A stretch of DNA of 64,000 nucleotides from NCBI GenBank assembly GCA_000002435.2, contig CM018789.1; one strand, 5' to 3'. Below are positions 9,998 through 64,000 of this stretch, one piece after another. The position numbers and the translations under genes were made by a program. How positions within the stretch are numbered: position 1 is the stretch's first letter; every line of letters starts with the position of its first letter. This DNA is from Giardia intestinalis (lineage: Eukaryota). The notes beneath the pieces are model-generated. The model was not told the origin of the DNA. It searched no databases and saw nothing but the letters and a program-made list of their open reading frames with translations.

Positions 9998-12900
9998 CTA
10001 CGCCTTCCCGCGGCAGAGGAACCACCAACACAAGAAGCCAACAAGACCACCTACAACGATGACAGCAGCCACTGCGATACCTGCGATGGCGCCTGTAGAA
10101 AGGCCGCTACTCTTGTTTGTGTTGGGAATCACGCACGCGTCGCCCTGGAGCTGGTAGCCATTACCATCGTCGCACTTGCAGGCCTTCGCCGAGCCGGCAG
10201 CCGGGTCTATTACCTCTTCCGGGGCAGTGCAGGCGGCCTTGCAGCTCTTCTTGTTGGCCGCGACGTATTGCGCTTTATCCTTGCATGTAAGACAGGTTTC
10301 CCCGCCGCTCAAGTCGCACGTCTCGCACCCGGCCCCTTCCAGCGTCGGGCACGCGTTGGCCTGTCCCTTGACGCACGCGTCGCCCTGGAGCTGGTAGCCA
10401 TTACCATCGTCGCACTTGCAGGCCTTCGCCGAGCCGGCAGCCGGGTCTATTACCTCTTCCGGGGCAGTGCAGGCGGCCTTGCAGCTCTTCTTGTTGGCCG
10501 CGACGTATTGCGCTTTATCCTTGCATGTAAGACAGGTTTCCCCGCCGCTCAAGTCGCACGTCTCGCACCCGGCCCCTTCCAGCGTCGGGCACGCGTTGGC
10601 CTGTCCCTTGACGCACGCGTCGCCCTGGAGCTGGTAGCCATTACCATCGTCGCACTTGCAGGCCTTCGCCGAGCCGGCAGCCGGGTCTATTACCTCTTCC
10701 GGGGCAGTGCAGGCGGCCTTGCAGCTCTTCTTGTTGGCCGCGACGTATTGCGCTTTATCCTTGCATGTAAGACAGGTTTCCCCGCCGCTCAAGTCGCACG
10801 TCTCGCACCCGGCCCCTTCCAGCGTCGGGCACGCGTTGGCCTGTCCCTTGACGCACGCGTCGCCCTGGAGCTGGTAGCCATTACCATCGTCGCACTTGCA
10901 GGCCTTCGCCGAGCCGGCAGCCGGGTCTATTACCTCTTCCGGGGCAGTGCAGGCGGCCTTGCAGCTCTTCTTGTTGGCCGCGACGTATTGCGCTTTATCC
11001 TTGCATGTAAGACAGGTTTCCCCGCCGCTCAAGTCGCACGTCTCGCACCCGGCCCCTTCCAGCGTCGGGCACGCGTTGGCCTGTCCCTTGACGCACGCGT
11101 CGCCCTGGAGCTGGTAGCCATTACCATCGTCGCACTTGCAGGCCTTCGCCGAGCCGGCAGCCGGGTCTATTACCTCTTCCGGGGCAGTGCAGGCGGCCTT
11201 GCAGCTCTTCTTGTTGGCCGCGACGTATTGCGCTTTATCCTTGCATGTAAGACAGGTTTCCCCGCCGCTCAAGTCGCACGTCTCGCACCCGGCCCCTTCC
11301 AGCGTCGGGCACGCGTTGGCCTGTCCCTTGACGCACGCGTCGCCCTGGAGCTGGTAGCCATTACCATCGTCGCACTTGCAGGCCTTCGCCGAGCCGGCAG
11401 CCGGGTCTATTACCTCTTCCGGGGCAGTGCAGGCGGCCTTGCAGCTCTTCTTGTTGGCCGCGACGTATTGCGCTTTATCCTTGCATGTAAGACAGGTTTC
11501 CCCGCCGCTCAAGTCGCACGTCTCGCACCCGGCCCCTTCCAGCGTCGGGCACGCGTTGGCCTGTCCCTTGACGCACGCGTCGCCCTGGAGCTGGTAGCCA
11601 TTACCATCGTCGCACTTGCAGGCCTTCGCCGAGCCGGCAGCCGGGTCTATTACCTCTTCCGGGGCAGTGCAGGCGGCCTTGCAGCTCTTCTTGTTGGCCG
11701 CGACGTATTGCGCTTTATCCTTGCATGTAAGACAGGTTTCCCCGCCGCTCAAGTCGCACGTCTCGCACCCGGCCCCTTCCAGCGTCGGGCACGCGTTGGC
11801 CTGTCCCTTGACGCACGCGTCGCCCTGGAGCTGGTAGCCATTACCATCGTCGCACTTGCAGGCCTTCGCCGAGCCGGCAGCCGGGTCTATTACCTCTTCC
11901 GGGGCAGTGCAGGCGGCCTTGCAGCTCTTCTTGTTGGCCGCGACGTATTGCGCTTTATCCTTGCATGTAAGACAGGTTTCCCCGCCGCTCAAGTCGCACG
12001 TCTCGCACCCGGCCCCTTCCAGCGTCGGGCACGCGTTGGCCTGTCCCTTGACGCACGCGTCGCCCTGGAGCTGGTAGCCATTACCATCGTCGCACTTGCA
12101 GGCCTTCGCCGAGCCGGCAGCCGGGTCTATTACCTCTTCCGGGGCAGTGCAGGCGGCCTTGCAGCTCTTCTTGTTGGCCGCGACGTATTGCGCTTTATCC
12201 TTGCATGTAAGACAGGTTTCCCCGCCGCTCAAGTCGCACGTCTCGCACCCGGCCCCTTCCAGCGTCGGGCACGCGTTGGCCTGTCCCTTGACGCACGCGT
12301 CGCCCTGGAGCTGGTAGCCATTACCATCGTCGCACTTGCAGGCCTTCGCCGAGCCGGCAGCCGGGTCTATTACCTCTTCCGGGGCAGTGCAGGCGGCCTT
12401 GCAGCTCTTCTTGTTGGCCGCGACGTATTGCGCTTTATCCTTGCATGTAAGACAGGTTTCCCCGCCGCTCAAGTCGCACGTCTCGCACCCGGCCCCTTCC
12501 AGCGTCGGGCACGCGTTGGCCTGTCCCTTGACGCACGCGTCGCCCTGGAGCTGGTAGCCATTACCATCGTCGCACTTGCAGGCCTTCGCCGAGCCGGCAG
12601 CCGGGTCTATTACCTCTTCCGGGGCAGTGCAGGCGGCCTTGCAGCTCTTCTTGTTGGCCGCGACGTATTGCGCTTTATCCTTGCATGTAAGACAGGTTTC
12701 CCCGCCGCTCAAGTCGCACGTCTCGCACCCGGCCCCTTCCAGCGTCGGGCACGCGTTGGCCTGTCCCTTGACGCACGCGTCGCCCTGGAGCTGGTAGCCA
12801 TTACCATCGTCGCACTTGCAGGCCTTCGCCGAGCCGGCAGCCGGGTCTATTACCTCTTCCGGGGCAGTGCAGGCGGCCTTGCAGCTCTTCTTGTTGGCCG

Positions 12901-15847
12901 CGACGTATTGCGCTTTATCCTTGCATGTAAGACAGGTTTCCCCGCCGCTCAAGTCGCACGTCTCGCACCCGGCCCCTTCCAGCGTCGGGCACGCGTTGGC
13001 CTGTCCCTTGACGCACGCGTCGCCCTGGAGCTGGTAGCCATTACCATCGTCGCACTTGCAGGCCTTCGCCGAGCCGGCAGCCGGGTCTATTACCTCTTCC
13101 GGGGCAGTGCAGGCGGCCTTGCAGCTCTTCTTGTTGGCCGCGACGTATTGCGCTTTATCCTTGCATGTAAGACAGGTTTCCCCGCCGCTCAAGTCGCACG
13201 TCTCGCACCCGGCCCCTTCCAGCGTCGGGCACGCGTTGGCCTGTCCCTTGACGCACGCGTCGCCCTGGAGCTGGTAGCCATTACCATCGTCGCACTTGCA
13301 GGCCTTCGCCGAGCCGGCAGCCGGGTCTATTACCTCTTCCGGGGCAGTGCAGGCGGCCTTGCAGCTCTTCTTGTTGGCCGCGACGTATTGCGCTTTATCC
13401 TTGCATGTAAGACAGGTTTCCCCGCCGCTCAAGTCGCACGTCTCGCACCCGGCCCCTTCCAGCGTCGGGCACGCGTTGGCCTGTCCCTTGACGCACGCGT
13501 CGCCCTGGAGCTGGTAGCCATTACCATCGTCGCACTTGCAGGCCTTCGCCGAGCCGGCAGCCGGGTCTATTACCTCTTCCGGGGCAGTGCAGGCGGCCTT
13601 GCAGCTCTTCTTGTTGGCCGCGACGTATTGCGCTTTATCCTTGCATGTAAGACAGGTTTCCCCGCCGCTCAAGTCGCACGTCTCGCACCCGGCCCCTTCC
13701 AGCGTCGGGCACGCGTTGGCCTGTCCCTTGACGCACGCGTCGCCCTGGAGCTGGTAGCCATTACCATCGTCGCACTTGCAGGCCTTCGCCGAGCCGGCAG
13801 CCGGGTCTATTACCTCTTCCGGGGCAGTGCAGGCGGCCTTGCAGCTCTTCTTGTTGGCCGCGACGTATTGCGCTTTATCCTTGCATGTAAGACAGGTTTC
13901 CCCGCCGCTCAAGTCGCACGTCTCGCACCCGGCCCCTTCCAGCGTCGGGCACGCGTTGGCCTGTCCCTTGACGCACGCGTCGCCCTGGAGCTGGTAGCCA
14001 TTACCATCGTCGCACTTGCAGGCCTTCGCCGAGCCGGCAGCCGGGTCTATTACCTCTTCCGGGGCAGTGCAGGCGGCCTTGCAGCTCTTCTTGTTGGCCG
14101 CGACGTATTGCGCTTTATCCTTGCATGTAAGACAGGTTTCCCCGCCGCTCAAGTCGCACGTCTCGCACCCGGCCCCTTCCAGCGTCGGGCACGCGTTGGC
14201 CTGTCCCTTGACGCACGCGTCGCCCTGGAGCTGGTAGCCATTACCATCGTCGCACTTGCAGGCCTTCGCCGAGCCGGCAGCCGGGTCTATTACCTCTTCC
14301 GGGGCAGTGCAGGCGGCCTTGCAGCTCTTCTTGTTGGCCGCGACGTATTGCGCTTTATCCTTGCATGTAAGACAGGTTTCCCCGCCGCTCAAGTCGCACG
14401 TCTCGCACCCGGCCCCTTCCAGCGTCGGGCACGCGTTGGCCTGTCCCTTGACGCACGCGTCGCCCTGGAGCTGGTAGCCATTACCATCGTCGCACTTGCA
14501 GGCCTTCGCCGAGCCGGCAGCCGGGTCTATTACCTCTTCCGGGGCAGTGCAGGCGGCCTTGCAGCTCTTCTTGTTGGCCGCGACGTATTGCGCTTTATCC
14601 TTGCATGTAAGACAGGTTTCCCCGCCGCCGTCCGCCCCCCCCCCCCGGCCCGGCCTGTCCTGACAGGTCGCCACGGTCCTTCCATCGGCACCACCCGCCG
14701 GCCGGCACCTCTTCCCAGGGCCGGCTCCGGGCCGCGACGTATGCGCCGCTGTGCGCCCCCGCTCAGTCCACGCTTGGACGCACGCGTCGCCCTGGAGCTG
14801 GTAGCCATTACCATCGTCGCACTTGCAGGCCTTCGCCGAGCCGGCAGCCGGGTCTATTACCTCTTCCGGGGCAGTGCAGGCGGCCTTGCAGCTCTTCTTG
14901 TTGGCCGCGACGTATTGCGCTTTATCCTTGCATGTAAGACAGGTTTCCCCGCCGCTCAAGTCGCACGTCTCGCACCCGGCCCCTTCCAGCGTCGGGCACG
15001 CGTTGGCCTGTCCCTTGACGCACGCGTCGCCCTGGAGCTGGTAGCCATTACCATCGTCGCACTTGCAGGCCTTCGCCGAGCCGGCAGCCGGGTCTATTAC
15101 CTCTTCCGGGGCAGTGCAGGCGGCCTTGCAGCTCTTCTTGTTGGCCGCGACGTATTGCGCTTTATCCTTGCATGTAAGACAGGTTTCCCCGCCGCTCAAG
15201 TCGCACGTCTCGCACCCGGCCCCTTCCAGCGTCGGGCACGCGTTGGCCTGTCCCTTGACGCACGCGTCGCCCTGGAGCTGGTAGCCATTACCATCGTCGC
15301 ACTTGCAGGCCTTCGCCGAGCCGGCAGCCGGGTCTATTACCTCTTCCGGGGCAGTGCAGGCGGCCTTGCAGCTCTTCTTGTTGGCCGCGACGTATTGCGC
15401 TTTATCCTTGCATGTAAGACAGGTTTCCCCGCCGCTCAAGTCGCACGTCTCGCACCCGGCCCCTTCCAGCGTCGGGCACGCGTTGGCCTGTCCCTTGACG
15501 CACGCGTCGCCCTGGAGCTGGTAGCCATTACCATCGTCGCACTTGCAGGCCTTCGCCGAGCCGGCAGCCGGGTCTATTACCTCTTCCGGGGCAGTGCAGG
15601 CGGCCTTGCAGCTCTTCTTGTTGGCCGCGACGTATTGCGCTTTATCCTTGCATGTAAGACAGGTTTCCCCGCCGCTCAAGTCGCACGTCTCGCACCCGGC
15701 CCCTTCCAGCGTCGGGCACGCGTTGGCCTGTCCCTTGACGCACGCGTCGCCCTGGAGCTGGTAGCCATTACCATCGTCGCACTGCGCGGTCTTCTCGTTG
15801 TGCTTTGCCAGCACTGTTACACAAACTAGGAGAAATCCTACCAACAT
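9998..15847 (-). CDS. vsp: Variant-specific surface protein (VSP) with ~23 tandem 80-aa cysteine-rich repeats, ~1949 aa
   Basis: C-terminus '...[31 protein letters not shown]' (TM helix plus invariant CRGKA tail). Body rich in CXXC (CETC, CLTC). Signal peptide '[14 protein letters not shown]'. The track ORF begins at GTG 15868; first ATG is 7 codons in (15847). VSP poly(A) motif follows the stop. Confidence 0.92.
10131..15783. repeat. 240-bp tandem repeat array (~23 units) inside the VSP coding region
   Basis: Identical 73-aa antisense ORFs recur every 240 bp from 10176 to 14256 and 14823 to 15543, so units appear 100% identical. Unit encodes '[80 protein letters not shown]'. Confidence 0.95.
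14629..14776. repeat. Aberrant repeat unit: ~148-bp GC-rich segment with a poly-C tract replacing 61 bp of the canonical unit (net +87 bp, in frame)
   Basis: After 'ggtttccccgccgc' the unit diverges into 'cgtccgcccccccccccggcccggcctgtcctgacagg...' and rejoins at 'gacgcacgcgtcgccctggag'. It encodes the G/R/A-rich '[52 protein letters not shown]' and lacks the Cys pattern. Confidence 0.8.
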
Positions 15848-58124: not shown

Positions 58125-59543
58125 TTACTTCGACTGGAGGCTTGCTTGAAACGTTCGAGCGTCATGTAATTGTTGGACAGTACTCTTCCGAACAATCTTG
58201 TCCTGCCATCGACTAGCTGACTCGTTTCTAGAATCAATTGGAAGATTGTCGAGTACCGTGCCTCGTCGAAGGAGGTCTTTGCGAGAGTATTCCAAGATGT
58301 CTAGCTGGCTGACATCAGCATCATTCTCCGTGCTATTAAGAATGACATTTTCTGCGTTTGACGTAGCCAGTTGCTGTACTGCAACCTTTTTAAGACTAGG
58401 TTCAGAGGACAGTATGAGCTCTGACAGGGTACATGCATCTGGCTTCTCAGCAGAATTCTTCTTATCGCCGTGCTCACTTGCATGACTGGATTTGTTTGCG
58501 ACTAGCTTTTCGAAGAACCAAACTTCTCTGCCCCCGGAATCAAGAATGCAATTAGTTGCTTTCTTATAGCATAAAAGCCACTCCGAAAAGAGTCTGTGAT
58601 CATCCAGAACAGCATAGGCCTCCTCACATAGCCTTCTGATCATCGGGATGAGTGGGCACTTGGTCTCGATAATAGAGACATTCTTTTCGGCAAGACTTCT
58701 CCACTTGTTACTCAAGTTGTGGAATCGAGGGGTTTCTCGCACGGTGTCATGAACCCAATGGATAAGCTCTTCAAACACATAGACGCTTGGGGTGAAAGGG
58801 TGAATAAGAAGTCGGTGCATGGCCTCTGCTCGTAGGTAATTCCCTACTCCGTTGAACAATTCCTGAGACAAAAGAAGCCGGCATATGGGTTGTGAAAATA
58901 TCGACTTGGGTGGCACAATGAAAGACCCGTCAAGACCTATAGGAATATGTGACAGTTTGGACAGTATCTTGGACACATAGTCTAGGTACTGTGCCACAGG
59001 ATCAGGGGACCGTGCATGGTCGAAGTCTCCTACTCGCCAGTACATGGTCTCTGGCCGTGGCGAGCATACTGCTAACACAGCATCAGATGCCTCAAACAAG
59101 AGATGTGCGTTAGACTTCAAAGCTTCCTCTGGGGTTAAGAAGGTGTTGATACAGCCTGCTAATCCCAGGCCAATCACGATACTGGTTGGTATGGTAAGCG
59201 CCACAGCGTGATCTGAGTGTTCCCAGGGGCGGCTTAAAGCGGTTGTTTTGCACAAATCATAGGGTGTCTCTGAGGTGTCAGATGTATTTCTTTTCAGACG
59301 CACAAAAATACTCTTTGCCTCATTCCTAGGTGGATCAGCTGCCCGAGCCAGGTCAACTCGGAGCTGCTTGCCTCGAGATTCGCACCTTATGGTAAATGCT
59401 ACTTTTATGGAATCATCAAGGAACAAAGGTGGGAGGGCCTTATACACACACGCCCTCGAAGTAGAGACGTTAGTAAAGAGAGTGTGCTCTGCCTCAAACG
59501 TTATGCGTTCTGCGAAGGCTCGAACCTCAGGATGCTCTGGCAT
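58125..59543 (-). CDS. Fpg/Nei-family (NEIL-like) DNA glycosylase/AP-lyase, ~472 aa
   Basis: The track ORF starts at TTG; the first ATG yields 'MPEHPEVRAFAERI', i.e. the Fpg/Nei N-terminal catalytic signature (Pro2, Glu3, Glu6; cf. 'MPELPEVE', NEIL1 'MPEGPEL'). H2TH motif 'LLSQELFNGVGNYLRAEAMHRLLIHPFTP' (cf. Nei '[21 protein letters not shown]'). No C-terminal CxxC zinc finger was seen (NEIL1-like 'zincless'). Confidence 0.85.
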   Translation of the reverse strand: MPEHPEVRAFAERITFEAEHTLFTNVSTSRACVYKALPPLFLDDSIKVAFTIRCESRGKQLRVDLARAADPPRNEAKSIFVRLKRNTSDTSETPYDLCKTTALSRPWEHSDHAVALTIPTSIVIGLGLAGCINTFLTPEEALKSNAHLLFEASDAVLAVCSPRPETMYWRVGDFDHARSPDPVAQYLDYVSKILSKLSHIPIGLDGSFIVPPKSIFSQPICRLLLSQELFNGVGNYLRAEAMHRLLIHPFTPSVYVFEELIHWVHDTVRETPRFHNLSNKWRSLAEKNVSIIETKCPLIPMIRRLCEEAYAVLDDHRLFSEWLLCYKKATNCILDSGGREVWFFEKLVANKSSHASEHGDKKNSAEKPDACTLSELILSSEPSLKKVAVQQLATSNAENVILNSTENDADVSQLDILEYSRKDLLRRGTVLDNLPIDSRNESASRWQDKIVRKSTVQQLHDARTFQASLQSK

Positions 59544-59547
59544 AAAA
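59544..59547. promoter_or_regulatory. 4-bp spacer ('aaaa') between divergent ATGs of the glycosylase and SprT genes
   Basis: Sequence reads CAT-AAAA-ATG. Both genes must use initiator elements that overlap the partner ORF. Confidence 0.4.
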
Positions 59548-60072
59548 ATGGATAGCAACCCCCTCCTGGACTTTTTTGCTGCCCCACCACCTACCTCTCA
59601 GGAACTAGAAACACAACACTGGCCTTTTGGTGATGTGCACGCGCTCTTTAGGCATTTCAACGAGGCTTTTTTCGACAATTGCCTGAGAGATGTTGTGGTT
59701 CATTGGAGCAATAGGCTAACACGTTCTGCAGGTCTATGCAAATACAGAGGGACGCGAACAGAAGAGCATAGTCCTATTGTAATTATCCTATCTGCACCTC
59801 TACTCCAATATCGTTCACAACACGACCTGCTCGACGTGCTGGTGCATGAGATGATCCACGCCTACCTTTTCAGACTGAAGGTGTTCGAGCGAGTGCATCA
59901 CGGGCCCGTCTGGCACGCACAAGCGCACCGAATTAACCAGGCCGCTGGACTTACAATCCGTGCCTGCCACAACTACTACCAAGAGGTAAGATACATTGCG
60001 CACCAACGGGCTCTGAAGCGGGTTCCAGTCATTGATCTTAGCAATAGCACTATTGATCTCACCGATGATTAG
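59548..60072 (+). CDS. SprT-like zinc metalloprotease domain protein (Spartan/SPRTN-like DNA-protein-crosslink protease core), 174 aa
   Basis: The track ORF begins at GTG 59275 and overlaps the glycosylase. ATG at codon 92 gives 'MDSNPLLDFF...'. The domain is collinear with human Spartan: 'VHALFRHFNEAFFDNCLRDVVVHWSNRLTRSAGLC' (cf. 'LQALFVQFNDQFFWGQLEAVEVKWSVRMTLCAGIC'), 'LLDVLVHEMIHAYLF' (HExxH), 'HGPVWHAQAHRIN' (cf. 'HGPEFCKHMHRIN'). Confidence 0.8.
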   Translation: MDSNPLLDFFAAPPPTSQELETQHWPFGDVHALFRHFNEAFFDNCLRDVVVHWSNRLTRSAGLCKYRGTRTEEHSPIVIILSAPLLQYRSQHDLLDVLVHEMIHAYLFRLKVFERVHHGPVWHAQAHRINQAAGLTIRACHNYYQEVRYIAHQRALKRVPVIDLSNSTIDLTDD

Positions 60073-63000
60073 AGGTCTTGGGCGTGACGCCAACCACGAA
60101 GCTGTGAAGGTGTGCCACAACATGAATCTTCATGCATGGTTCCACGTGACTGCCTGTATATGATAAAGGCGATTTGCAGCTCTGCCTCTAAGTGTGTTAT
60201 GCTTTCAAATAACTTATACGTCATTCTTAGCTCCAAGTCGTGAATGCATGCTTCTTGAAATAATGTAAGAGCTTATTTTGCTTGCCAATTATCCTCCTCA
60301 TTCTTAGTGAGTCTGTGCACACCGCTTCTTATATATGAATTGCTTCTACACACCAGTATCACTGGTAGATTCTAGGGTACACAACGTGTTTCTGTACATG
60401 CTGGGACATCTTTCAACATTGCAGGTGGTACATACCATCCTGCATAGCCATCAGGGAATCTATTATTAGCCTATTATTAAAGTACTGTAAGAGCAATCAT
60501 GGACGGATATTAGTACTTTTCACGTAGGCCCTTAAAGTCGCCAGCTGTATACACGCTCCTCGGGGTTGTGGCCATCCTCCCTTGGGCTTCGTGCTTTTTG
60601 TAAGCATAGAGTGAAAGCACTTGCATTGGCAAACTAGGCAAACGCCAGATATGTCATGCTATGAACACGTTGAACGACGATGAATATCTTACAGAATAGG
60701 AAGATCTGCATCCAGCTATCGGTAACATAGACTTTCATAAGACATGTGAGCCGCACAGAAATACCACTGTAAATGTACTGAAAATCCACATGAGCATCGT
60801 CACATGGAGATAGAAAGCCATCTGAATGAACACTTTTGCGGGCTGCTTTGGTGCTTTGAAGAGACGCGAATGACTTTACGTCACTGTATGTTACAAACCC
60901 AACTGACCTTTCATGCCTTCCATGATGTAGTCTAGTCAGAACGAGCTGATTGTAGTCTTCCGATATATGCTTAAGGGCGCAAGGTGTAGATCAAATAGAT
61001 TGCTTTATTGCCTTCGAGAAAAGGACGGGCCTTGCTTTGCCAATACATAGATATGTGATAATAGACCAGGCAATCAGCAGTAAATGGAATACACGGCTAA
61101 TAGCTGCAAGACGCAGTCGTAAGCCTGGTTCTGCATGGGCAGCATCCAAATAGGGCCGTTGTCATGTCGGCTCTTTGCAGACGCATTGTGTACAGCAGTT
61201 ACGAGCTGCGCAACGGAAGGTCATAGGGGGTGAGGTTGTCTACTGCACCACGCCGCATAGAGGACAAATCAAGACCGACAGCACGAGAAAAGCGACAAGA
61301 ACAGTCGCTTTGTGTGCCTACTGGCAAGGACTTCGTGACAAACCCATATGGCGCAGAGCCTGGGATTGGCCTTGTCCACGTTCATGTTAGGGAGCGTGGG
61401 CCTTCAAGAGTTAGCCAGAAGTTGCACCAATTCTCAACTGGTACATGCCTTTATCCAGTGATGTCCAACGCGATGCTTTACATCCGTGCAAGCTTTGAGA
61501 TACTAATTTCACCGACTCGTTGTGACTCAAGGCGTCCAACTCGTTATAATATTGAGGCAAGGATTGAACTGAGTAACTGATTGCTAGGGAAATTATGCCA
61601 TCACTATCACAACTAGCTTGAATCGTGAGAGAAGTTTGTACTGACAAGATTAAGCGGCCCAACCAGCACATGAGAAGAGTCTGTCCCTTATGATACTTTG
61701 ACCACCAAAGGGAAGGTAATGGATCCACGGTCATTGTTTCTGATGTAGCAAGTAGCGCCTGCAATAGATGGCTAGATCATAAATGATATTATGGTTATGG
61801 CGTGTCACGCAATTGAGCACGAGTAAGATTGCAGACTGGCCCAACCTTAACTAGAGATCCAAACAAACAGACAACCAGCAGAGTAAAGATTGTAAGAGCA
61901 ACTAAACGTCAAATCTGTAAACGGCTTAAGTTTGGTGAGTGGCATGAAAAATGGTCACTGAGCCTATCGTTTTTAGCTAATGTGGAACTTTTAATCTTGT
62001 AAGGCTAAGGTTGTTTTATCTCTTGTTGCTGACAACAAGCCCCTGCATAAGCTACGTAATAATCATCTATACTACTGCCGCGCTACTGTTCTCTGGATAA
62101 GTATCGATTGACTAAAGACAGACCCGTTGTCATAGATACATTGTGAGAAGGCTGATACTAGAAGCTTGTCTGTCGAGTTTGCATGTTCTATTTATGGAGA
62201 CTTCCGATGGCAACCTTTATGTAGAGATATGGATGGTCTAGGAAACTGAGCCATTAGCGCTTCAGTCGCCGTCTTACAAAAAACAGATTGCAAAAAGTAG
62301 ATGCGAAGTAGGATATTTGGTAGTTGCTGATTAGTGGGCATGATACCCAAGAATCCATGGAGCCGTTACCCAATTTTCCAAATTACAATAAGCAGCTTGC
62401 TTTGTTGACCCGGGACTGGTATCAAAAGATGTCTGGTAATCACAGAATGCTTTTAAAGTGATCTTGTGTGGCAAAATGCTTATGACGTGAATGAAATGAG
62501 CTGTAGGTTAAAGCAGGCAGCTTCCTATACTCATAAAATCGTCCAGCAGAGTGTCCTACAGCCTTGTACGGTTATACTTGACCATCTATTATTTCCCAGC
62601 ATAAGCACAACAAGTCCTCATTACAAAAGTGGGCGCTTTATTCTTCATTCAATACCAGATTGCATATTATGCCAGACAATTATCATGCAACGGCTGATAA
62701 AGATTTATATGACCTGGCAGGACATACGAGTGCCGTTAACATTAAGGTGCGCGTAGATAGTGCATATTTGACCCAGCAAAGATAAAGTCAACCAGAGTCA
62801 GAAAAGGGGAAAGAGAAAATGGAAGCCACCATACTCCACAGACTTCTATCATGTTTTATACGCGTGGATGCTGAATTAACCAGGTGCTCAGACGCAAGGT
62901 ATTTGCTGTAAGACACTTAGGAGCTGTAGCTTGACGCATACAGGTGACATACTATAGTTATGCTGAATAACGCGGAGGTATCGATGAGTGGACGCACAAG

Positions 63001-64000
63001 TATTGAAGGCGATGAGCCACAGGGGCTTCTATGAACTGCTCACGGTGAGTGGAAGTACCGTAGATACCTTCACTACCAGGCACGCTTAACCCAATCTAGA
63101 ATTAGTATAAAGCATAGAGTTGGACGGACCTAGGTTGCGTCTAGTAAAACGTAGGACACTTCTAAGAGCTCAACTTAAGGATGGCGAGGCGGCCCTGTAA
63201 CCCTGCATAGCTGGCCTTGCATCCAATAAAGACTAGGGGCTGAGTGGCACATATGTTCGTCATCCAGCATGGCGAATAGCCCGTGGAGCGGCAAGATCAA
63301 TCTTTCCTAGACGAGCAACACGTAGTGAGTGTTCGACCAGTACCAATGGGCAAGGGTTAATTCTCGCCATAACTGACGCCCGGACGGCAGAAGCCAATAG
63401 GAAAGACAGCTCTTACCGGAGCGGTGCTGGGGATGCTCTGCAAGTCAGAGCCAGAAGGGCCTGGTAGCCATACTGGTGCCTGCTGTCGTCGGGCAACCCT
63501 GTTAAAGAAGCAGCGGCTCCTCGAGCGGGGCAGCTTAGGGGCCCACTACGTTCTCCTATTCTGCAGCGCATATTGTCTACTGGCAGGGAGCTGATGTCTT
63601 TCGTGGTTGCATGGTCCTGCTCACACCAGAGACAGAGCCAGACGACGGAGAGTAGGAGACTGACTCCCAGTTGAGATCTGCTTATTCCAGGCCCAACCAC
63701 ACCGCAGTATGCATCCACATCGATCTACGGTAGGTGGCGGGCAGCTTGCAGGGTGGAATTGGCAGCCTGGGCGAATTAAGGGCGGCGGATGTATTGCTGC
63801 CTCATTCCATCAATAGCATGGTTGGCTTGCGAGATGGAAGCAGTGGTTGCGGCGAAGGCACGTGAGGCGTCCAGATGAAGCGGACTATACAGATCGCTTA
63901 ACAGCATTAAAAGTTGAAATGGTTACACTGCCCGCTTGCAAAGGTACATGGTTCGGCCTGCGAACACTGCGTGTTTACTGACGCAGACTGGCCTATTGGC
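60073..64000. other. ~3.9 kb terminal region without credible coding potential
   Basis: Only five short ORFs (71-117 aa) with no AT-rich start context or domains. All six frames are closed by stops within ~100 nt of position 64000, so no gene runs off the window end. Confidence 0.55.

Follow-up and report, generated by a model that had tools for sequence, protein, structure and literature searches.

Head-to-head genes for a predicted NEIL1-type DNA glycosylase and a minimal SPRTN-type protease in Giardia intestinalis

The DNA analysed in this work (the window) is a 64,000-nucleotide stretch of Giardia intestinalis contig CM018789.1. At positions 58125-60072 it carries two divergently oriented genes, one for a predicted NEIL1-type DNA glycosylase and one for a predicted SPRTN-type protease core, and we ask here what can be concluded from their close head-to-head arrangement. 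Direct reading of the sequence gives a minus-strand open reading frame (ORF, 58125-59543) of 472 amino acids, which starts with MPEHPEV and has GVGNYLRAE at residues 232-240, and a plus-strand ORF (59548-60072) of 174 amino acids with HEMIHAYLF at residues 100-108 and HGPVWHAQAHRIN at residues 118-130; all motifs quoted in the initial annotation of the locus were thus found in the translations. The junction consists of CAT (59541-59543), AAAA (59544-59547) and ATG (59548-59550), which bears out the reported CAT-AAAA-ATG arrangement with start codons 4 bp apart. The features discussed below are the following.

58125-59543, minus strand: predicted NEIL1-type Fpg/Nei DNA glycosylase/apurinic-apyrimidinic (AP) lyase gene, 472 amino acids, KAE8301637.1 (match to the WB protein, Pfam, phmmer, profile, fold)
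59544-59547, no strand: AAAA spacer, 4 bp, between the two start codons (read directly)
59548-60072, plus strand: predicted SprT-like (SPRTN-type) zinc metalloprotease gene, 174 amino acids, KAE8301638.1 (Pfam, match to human SPRTN, AlphaFold2 model)
59572-59578, minus strand: A-rich stretch that reads AAAAAA in the NEIL orientation, putative TATA-like promoter element of NEIL (sequence, conservation in four lineages)

Both translations are identical to annotated proteins of G. intestinalis WB, from which the window comes, KAE8301637.1, named 'Endonuclease VIII-like 1', and KAE8301638.1, named 'SprT-like family protein', and the identities of the two genes are already public in GenBank and UniProt. 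In the 2007 annotation the protease gene was represented by the model GL50803_115695, a 227-aa 'hypothetical protein'. Our literature search, made with the terms NEIL1, SPRTN, SprT-like, endonuclease VIII and GL50803_115695, found nothing relevant on either protein in Giardia. The remark in the initial annotation that such proteins have not been characterised in Giardia is thus right for the searchable literature, but the names have already been carried by the databases. In several short-read assemblies a 102-aa ORF lying antisense within the SprT gene (59815-60123, minus strand) was called instead of SprT; this call is likely an annotation artefact.

The predicted NEIL1-type glycosylase

Sequence, profile and fold comparisons of the minus-strand protein all pointed to human NEIL1. 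In a phmmer search against the PDB sequences human NEIL1 was found with an E-value of 1.3e-14, the next family with 0.03. A profile made solely from Giardia-lineage homologues matched human NEIL1 with 3.8e-33, and the same profile gave 1.2e-5 for mimivirus Nei, 5.6e-5 for a plant Fpg, 7.9e-5 for bacterial MutM, 4.6e-3 for NEIL2, 0.02 for NEIL3 and 0.05 for E. coli Nei. The Pfam matches of the protein were weaker, each falling below the curated gathering cut-off (H2TH, 3.6e-5; Neil1-DNA_bind, PF09292, 3e-3; Fapy_DNA_glyco, 0.026). PF09292 was recognised with 7e-8 in the NEIL protein of G. muris, and the H2TH and the NEIL1 zincless-finger models were both matched by 7/7 members of the lineage. 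The AlphaFold2 model had a mean predicted local distance difference test (pLDDT) score of 63.5; its core was confident, the insert at residues 71-110 and the segment 325-455 were not, and the zincless finger was modelled with poor confidence. In the Foldseek search of the PDB all of the top 50 matches of this model were human NEIL1, with a best E-value of 4.5e-18 and target-normalised TM-scores of 0.70-0.79.

The N-terminal domain and the H2TH domain of the protein comprise residues 1-70 and 111-324, the zincless finger residues 315-343. A lineage-specific insert of about 45 aa (about residues 64-118) is found in the N-terminal domain, and the C-terminal tail (about 345-472) is a low-confidence region. 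In an alignment of nine NEIL sequences the invariant positions were M1, P2, E3, G58, N231-E240 (N-G-x-G-N-Y-L-R-A-E of the H2TH motif), R339 and W342. K59, the equivalent of human K54 (SRGKQL vs. ARGKEL in NEIL1), was present in 8/9 of the sequences; the distant homologue P0035 has E at this position.

The Giardia protein shares with human and metazoan NEIL1 (PDB 1TDH, 5ITQ, 6LWx) the N-terminal Met-Pro-Glu, the Lys of the RGK motif, the NGxGNYLRAE sequence of the H2TH motif, the collinear arrangement of the domains and a zincless finger with a conserved Arg (Giardia R339 corresponds to human R277). Both the fold of the model and the profile rank NEIL1 first, the other Fpg/Nei structures scoring 1e-5 or worse by profile. 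The differences are in the overall identity, which is only ~20-26%, in the ~45-aa insert and a second, ~10-aa insert of the G. intestinalis proteins, and in their ~130-aa C-terminal tail, which is unrelated to human NEIL1. The NEIL protein of G. muris is a shorter form of 349 aa. Taken by sequence and by model, the minus-strand protein is a NEIL1-type enzyme. The assignment of this protein to the Fpg/Nei family by the initial annotation thus holds, with the catalytic residues intact and with the qualification that the hidden Markov model domain matches are sub-threshold.

The profile also speaks about the origin of the enzyme. A recent acquisition from bacteria by lateral gene transfer was considered and rejected, human NEIL1 being favoured over bacterial Fpg/Nei proteins by ~28 orders of magnitude; judged by these scores the glycosylase is a eukaryotic NEIL1-type protein, not a recent bacterial Fpg/Nei import.

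The start codon of the NEIL gene is robust. Reading the sequence upstream of Met1 we found no ATG in the NEIL frame before a stop codon, thus Pro2 would be exposed. By homology with NEIL1, Pro2 would act after removal of Met1 as the Schiff-base nucleophile assisted by Glu3 and Lys59, the H2TH motif and the zincless finger with Arg339 would bind DNA, and the enzyme would most likely excise oxidised bases. From its sequence we expect that the protein is probably active. The presence of a zincless-finger NEIL1-type enzyme in a diplomonad bears on the evolutionary history of the eukaryotic Fpg/Nei enzymes, and, in a microaerophilic parasite, to the tolerance of DNA damage caused by oxidation and by nitro drugs.

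The predicted SPRTN-type protease core

The only Pfam domain found in the plus-strand protein was SprT-like (1.3e-25, above the gathering score). Human SPRTN was matched with 1.3e-22 over residues 26-148, which correspond to the catalytic core. H100, E101, H104 and H118, i.e. the HExxH motif and the third His zinc ligand, were invariant in the alignment. The AlphaFold2 model (pLDDT 80.7) matched the human structure 6MDW with an E-value of 2.6e-10 and could be superimposed on 6MDW/6MDX with a root mean square deviation of 3.0 A over 143 columns at an identity of 36-38%. The sequence HEMIHAYLF is identical in human SPRTN/DVC1, and the third zinc ligand in the HGP motif and the fold of the subdomain are also shared. 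The SprT/Spartan call of the initial annotation is therefore borne out by domain, sequence and fold, for the catalytic core only.

With the word-indexed homologue search we detected only four SprT relatives, and the G. muris orthologue was recovered only by an exhaustive representative search. This search identified 1144 SprT relatives, the closest being a 271-aa protein (56% identity), a 346-aa protein (55%) and G. muris TNJ29992.1 (203 aa, 49%). In the alignment the block HWWxCxxC...NRxP...CGG of the zinc-binding subdomain was kept in the full-length SPRTN-type homologues and was lacking in WB, P0043, P0046, P0047, P0048 and P0052, a set made up of the Giardia clade and one other sequence. 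The members of the Giardia clade also lack everything downstream of the zinc-binding subdomain. The G. intestinalis protein ends at residue 174, 26 residues past the catalytic subdomain, it has no Cys beyond residue 140, and its tail is disordered in the model. Compared to human SPRTN the zinc-binding domain (human residues 151-215), the basic region, the SHP and PIP boxes and UBZ are missing. We consider the protein, on its sequence, to be a SPRTN-type catalytic core and not a full member of the SPRTN family, because the zinc-binding domain and the basic region are absent; the gene would encode a minimal HExxH zinc protease of the SPRTN type, from which the zinc-binding domain, the basic region, the SHP box, the PIP box and UBZ have been lost.

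The last 14 residues of the protease contain two tandem motifs, VIDLS (161-165) and IDLTDD (169-174), which resemble SUMO-interacting motifs (SIMs). The pattern [VI]-I-D-L-[ST] followed by acidic residues is kept in four G. intestinalis lineages, and G. muris, P0046 and P0047 have two or three copies of it. Wss1 and ACRC/GCNA are targeted through SIMs, not through a ubiquitin-binding zinc finger (PMC6463212), and SUMOylation is present in Giardia (PMC4030834), thus the protease of the Giardia clade may be targeted by SUMO in a similar way. Yeast Wss1 and ACRC/GCNA are small or modular metalloproteases, as are the Giardia-clade proteins, whose C-terminal motifs are SIM-like. Unlike in Wss1, the catalytic domain of the Giardia protein is by sequence of the SPRTN type, not WLM, and its SIMs are putative, recognised by motif alone. 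We found no description of a SPRTN core that lacks the zinc-binding domain and has a SIM-like tail, and this feature of the Giardia clade appears to be a mildly new point. Such a protein could serve as a natural minimal model for the targeting and activation of a Spartan core. This point and that of a NEIL1-type enzyme in a diplomonad are both independent of the head-to-head layout of the genes.

Residues 1-25 of the protease (59548-59622) are absent from G. muris and are poorly modelled, which fits the idea of an N-terminal extension that overlies the NEIL promoter. This G. intestinalis-specific segment contains the sequence [SN]-x-x-L-L-[DN]-F-F, which at the motif level is loosely similar to a PIP box (Qxx[LIM]xx[FY][FY]) and has no Gln. 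The Phe-Phe codons of this stretch coincide with the A-rich element upstream of NEIL.

The start codon of SprT is less certain than that of NEIL. From 59548 to the conserved SprT domain the frame contains no further ATG, therefore translation must start at 59548 or upstream of it, never downstream. The SprT frame is open upstream of 59548, where it has another ATG at a distance of 16 codons in each of the four lineages, and the 2007 model of 227 aa also started further upstream. If the start were mis-assigned, and the true one were this ATG (about 59500) or one even further, as in GL50803_115695, the coding regions of the two genes would overlap in antisense orientation. We regard this as very unlikely. 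Upstream of 59548 the SprT frame runs antisense to the conserved codons of the NEIL N-terminus, with the third codon positions in register, thus this stretch would be conserved simply as the complement of NEIL codons, and its conservation is uninformative about the SprT start. The ATG at 59548 is in an initiator-like context (AAAAATG), whereas the upstream ATG is in GC-rich sequence; the length of 174 aa is found in the current reference annotation and in the gene calls of other assemblages, and homology to SPRTN begins only at residue 26. On these grounds 59548 is favoured.

The junction and the pairing of the two genes

The 4-bp spacer and its flanking bases form an AT-rich patch, ATAAAAAT (59542-59549). 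Giardia promoters are short, AT-rich and inherently bidirectional, transcription starts within an initiator next to the ATG, and a mapped 5' untranslated region (UTR) was ~3 nt long (PMC1885649). Sequencing of transcription start sites (TSSs) yielded AT-rich consensus variants, including AAAATAAAATG and ATTTTAAAATG, leaders as short as 1 nt and, in some cases, transcription of adjacent genes that starts in both directions from one nucleotide between them (PMC3792122). The ATAAAAAT patch fits these published initiators, thus both mRNAs can start within the spacer or at its edge, and the patch is likely to be the initiator shared by the two genes. Most likely both genes would be transcribed divergently from ATAAAAAT with leaders of 0-5 nt, in the usual mode of Giardia. 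It had been argued in the initial annotation that each gene must initiate inside the ORF of the other; with 5' UTRs that can be 1-3 nt long and AT-rich initiators next to the ATG (PMC3792122, PMC1885649) this does not follow.

What must lie in the coding sequence of the neighbour is the upstream promoter elements of each gene; the rest of each promoter would be within the first codons of the other gene. In Giardia promoters an AT-rich element is found ~30 bp ahead of the start site (PMC1885649). A run of six A residues is located 29-34 nt upstream of the NEIL ATG, where it overlies the Phe9-Phe10 codons of SprT, and it is conserved in four lineages; we consider the A-rich run at 59572-59578 a candidate for a TATA-like element of the NEIL promoter. 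Divergent genes that share one short AT-rich region and have very short leaders are known in Giardia, ran/phd being one of such bidirectional pairs (PMC1885649, PMC3792122). In ran/phd the spacer is 153 bp, in contrast to the 4 bp found here, where all of the promoter except the initiator is coding sequence of the neighbouring gene.

To see the spacing in its context we used a crude map of long ATG-initiated ORFs across the window, which contained 10 divergent pairs. The start codons were at most 12 bp apart in 4/10 of them, the NEIL/SprT pair included. The other three are as follows.

3153/3166: divergent ORF pair, 12-bp spacer, CAT-TTAATTAAAGCA-ATG
40408/40416: divergent ORF pair, 7-bp spacer, CAT-TTTTTAG-ATG
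34650/34649: divergent ORF pair, -2 bp, overlapping CATG (from the ORF map)

The spacer is AT-rich in two of these three pairs. The 4-bp spacing of NEIL and SprT is thus real and not unusual in this window. Tight spacing of this kind illustrates known traits of Giardia, namely extreme compaction, AT-rich initiators and near-leaderless mRNAs, and the three other pairs can be used as internal controls for any argument that starts from close head-to-head spacing.

The gene order and the exact junction (CAT-TTTT-ATG in the NEIL orientation) are identical in WB, P15 (assemblage E, L009), L011/L012 and L013. The identity of the NEIL proteins across these lineages is 71-90%, two lineages beyond P15 having 75% and 71%. 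The arrangement is different in G. muris. There the NEIL gene (CM016927.1) has kept the WD40-PUF-S4 synteny on its 3' side, and its 5' neighbour, 57 bp away, is a GINS/Sld5-family gene; the same arrangement was seen in a muris-like contig (L014). The G. muris SprT gene (TNJ29992.1) is on another chromosome (CM016925.1), head-to-head with a DEAD/Helicase_C gene at a distance of 27 bp. In the P0046 lineage, which is also Giardia-like, SprT is located between GDPD and MutS genes, unlinked to NEIL. Comparison of these sequences indicates that synteny breaks exactly at the 5' end of NEIL and that only the G. intestinalis complex has the pairing; most likely a rearrangement in the G. intestinalis lineage brought the two genes together.

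Two further observations were made in this comparison. The G. muris genes located 5' of NEIL (213 aa and 176 aa) were considered as diverged SprT genes and rejected; they matched GINS/Sld5 and, weakly, Rrp15, and BLASTP against WB SprT was non-significant. In a contig of the P0046 lineage (L019, SRR31929897, 617-11057) the SprT homologue immediately precedes a MutS-family gene, and a Rad52 gene is at most ~5 kb away; this repair-gene neighbourhood is probably coincidental.

We think, with a probability of roughly 80%, that the locus contains two independent, probably functional DNA-repair genes, which became neighbours by happenstance in a very compact genome. Some points weigh against this interpretation. 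The enzyme activities of both proteins are predicted from homology. In human SPRTN the zinc-binding domain and the basic region are required for the DNA-structure-specific activity (PMC7534798), thus their loss makes the DNA dependence of the Giardia protease, and its action on DNA-protein crosslinks, questionable. The 4-bp spacer has been kept despite the 71-90% identity of the NEIL proteins, which indicates some constraint on the junction; this is expected if the spacer is the initiator of both genes. The starts of the three comparison pairs are those of the longest ATG-initiated ORFs, not annotated starts. Finally, the widely scattered expression ratios of neighbouring Giardia genes, found by serial analysis of gene expression (SAGE), fit our interpretation, but head-to-head pairs sharing a promoter region were allowed as a possible exception to this lack of correlation (PMC1885649).

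The competing explanation, put forward in the initial annotation as co-regulation of the two genes, is that of a functional repair module, in which the glycosylase and a protease clearing its trapped Schiff-base DNA-protein crosslinks would be co-expressed from a shared bidirectional promoter. It is established knowledge that the two activities complement each other biochemically, Fpg/Nei enzymes acting through covalent intermediates and SPRTN-type proteases clearing DNA-protein crosslinks. The invariance of the 4-bp junction in four lineages of the G. intestinalis complex and the possible co-expression of head-to-head pairs that share a promoter (PMC1885649) also speak for such a module. We nevertheless find it quite unlikely. 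G. muris carries the two genes on different chromosomes, each of them tightly paired with an unrelated gene, the pairing is also absent in the P0046 lineage, and tight divergent pairs are frequent in the window. Adjacency extending beyond closely related, broadly syntenic genomes, which one would look for in a co-regulated pair, was found neither in G. muris nor in the P0046 lineage. The genomes of the G. intestinalis complex are broadly syntenic in this region, and thus conservation of the junction among them appears to say little about function. Moreover, with ~5000 genes, of which ~2% are devoted to DNA repair, roughly two adjacent pairs of repair genes can be expected by chance (this is a rough estimate, not a computed value). 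A dedicated module is made unlikely by this chance expectation together with the lack of conservation beyond the G. intestinalis complex, and we found nothing to support that the adjacency was selected for joint function.

One could go a step further and combine the features described above: an as yet undescribed minimal SPRTN, consisting of a core and tandem SIMs, would be recruited to SUMOylated crosslinks without a DNA-binding module, and in the G. intestinalis complex its gene would have been captured beside the NEIL1-type gene under a shared 8-bp initiator, the two forming a co-expressed repair unit. We regard this scenario as unlikely, and prefer chance adjacency of two independent repair genes.

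Flanking sequences and other observations in the window

In the WB annotation the neighbouring genes encode a WD40 protein and a Pumilio-family protein. In the same WB assembly each of the two repair proteins has two GenBank accessions (KAE8301637/KAE8301642 for NEIL and KAE8301638/KAE8301641 for SprT), the numbers of which point to a second, inverted copy of the pair that is separated from the first by two genes. We found no inverted or direct repeat of the locus within the window. SprT, NEIL and the WD40 and PUF genes follow one another without interruption in many short-read WB contigs, and this speaks against the boundary of a duplication at the 3' end of NEIL. Such a second copy may truly exist, or it may be an artefact of the assembly.

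The ~3.9 kb downstream of SprT (60073-64000) contain no ORF of at least 120 aa, no Rfam hit and no tandem repeat, and the Rfam and tandem-repeat scans of the whole 56-64 kb region likewise found nothing. Such an ORF-poor segment is unusual in the gene-dense Giardia genome. The first ~600 bp past SprT are 73% identical to P15, and the contigs of P15 and of the assemblage-B-like type extend 600-700 bp beyond the stop codon of SprT. Independent short-read contigs of WB all end at position 63008 or 63031 of the window, which suggests a repeat boundary at these positions.

In another part of the window ~23 tandem copies of a 240-bp unit occupy positions 10130-15796, forming a perfect repeat in which nearly all copies are 100% identical. 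It lies in a minus-strand ORF of 1949 aa (9998-15847), and translates into an array of 80-aa repeats in the protein.

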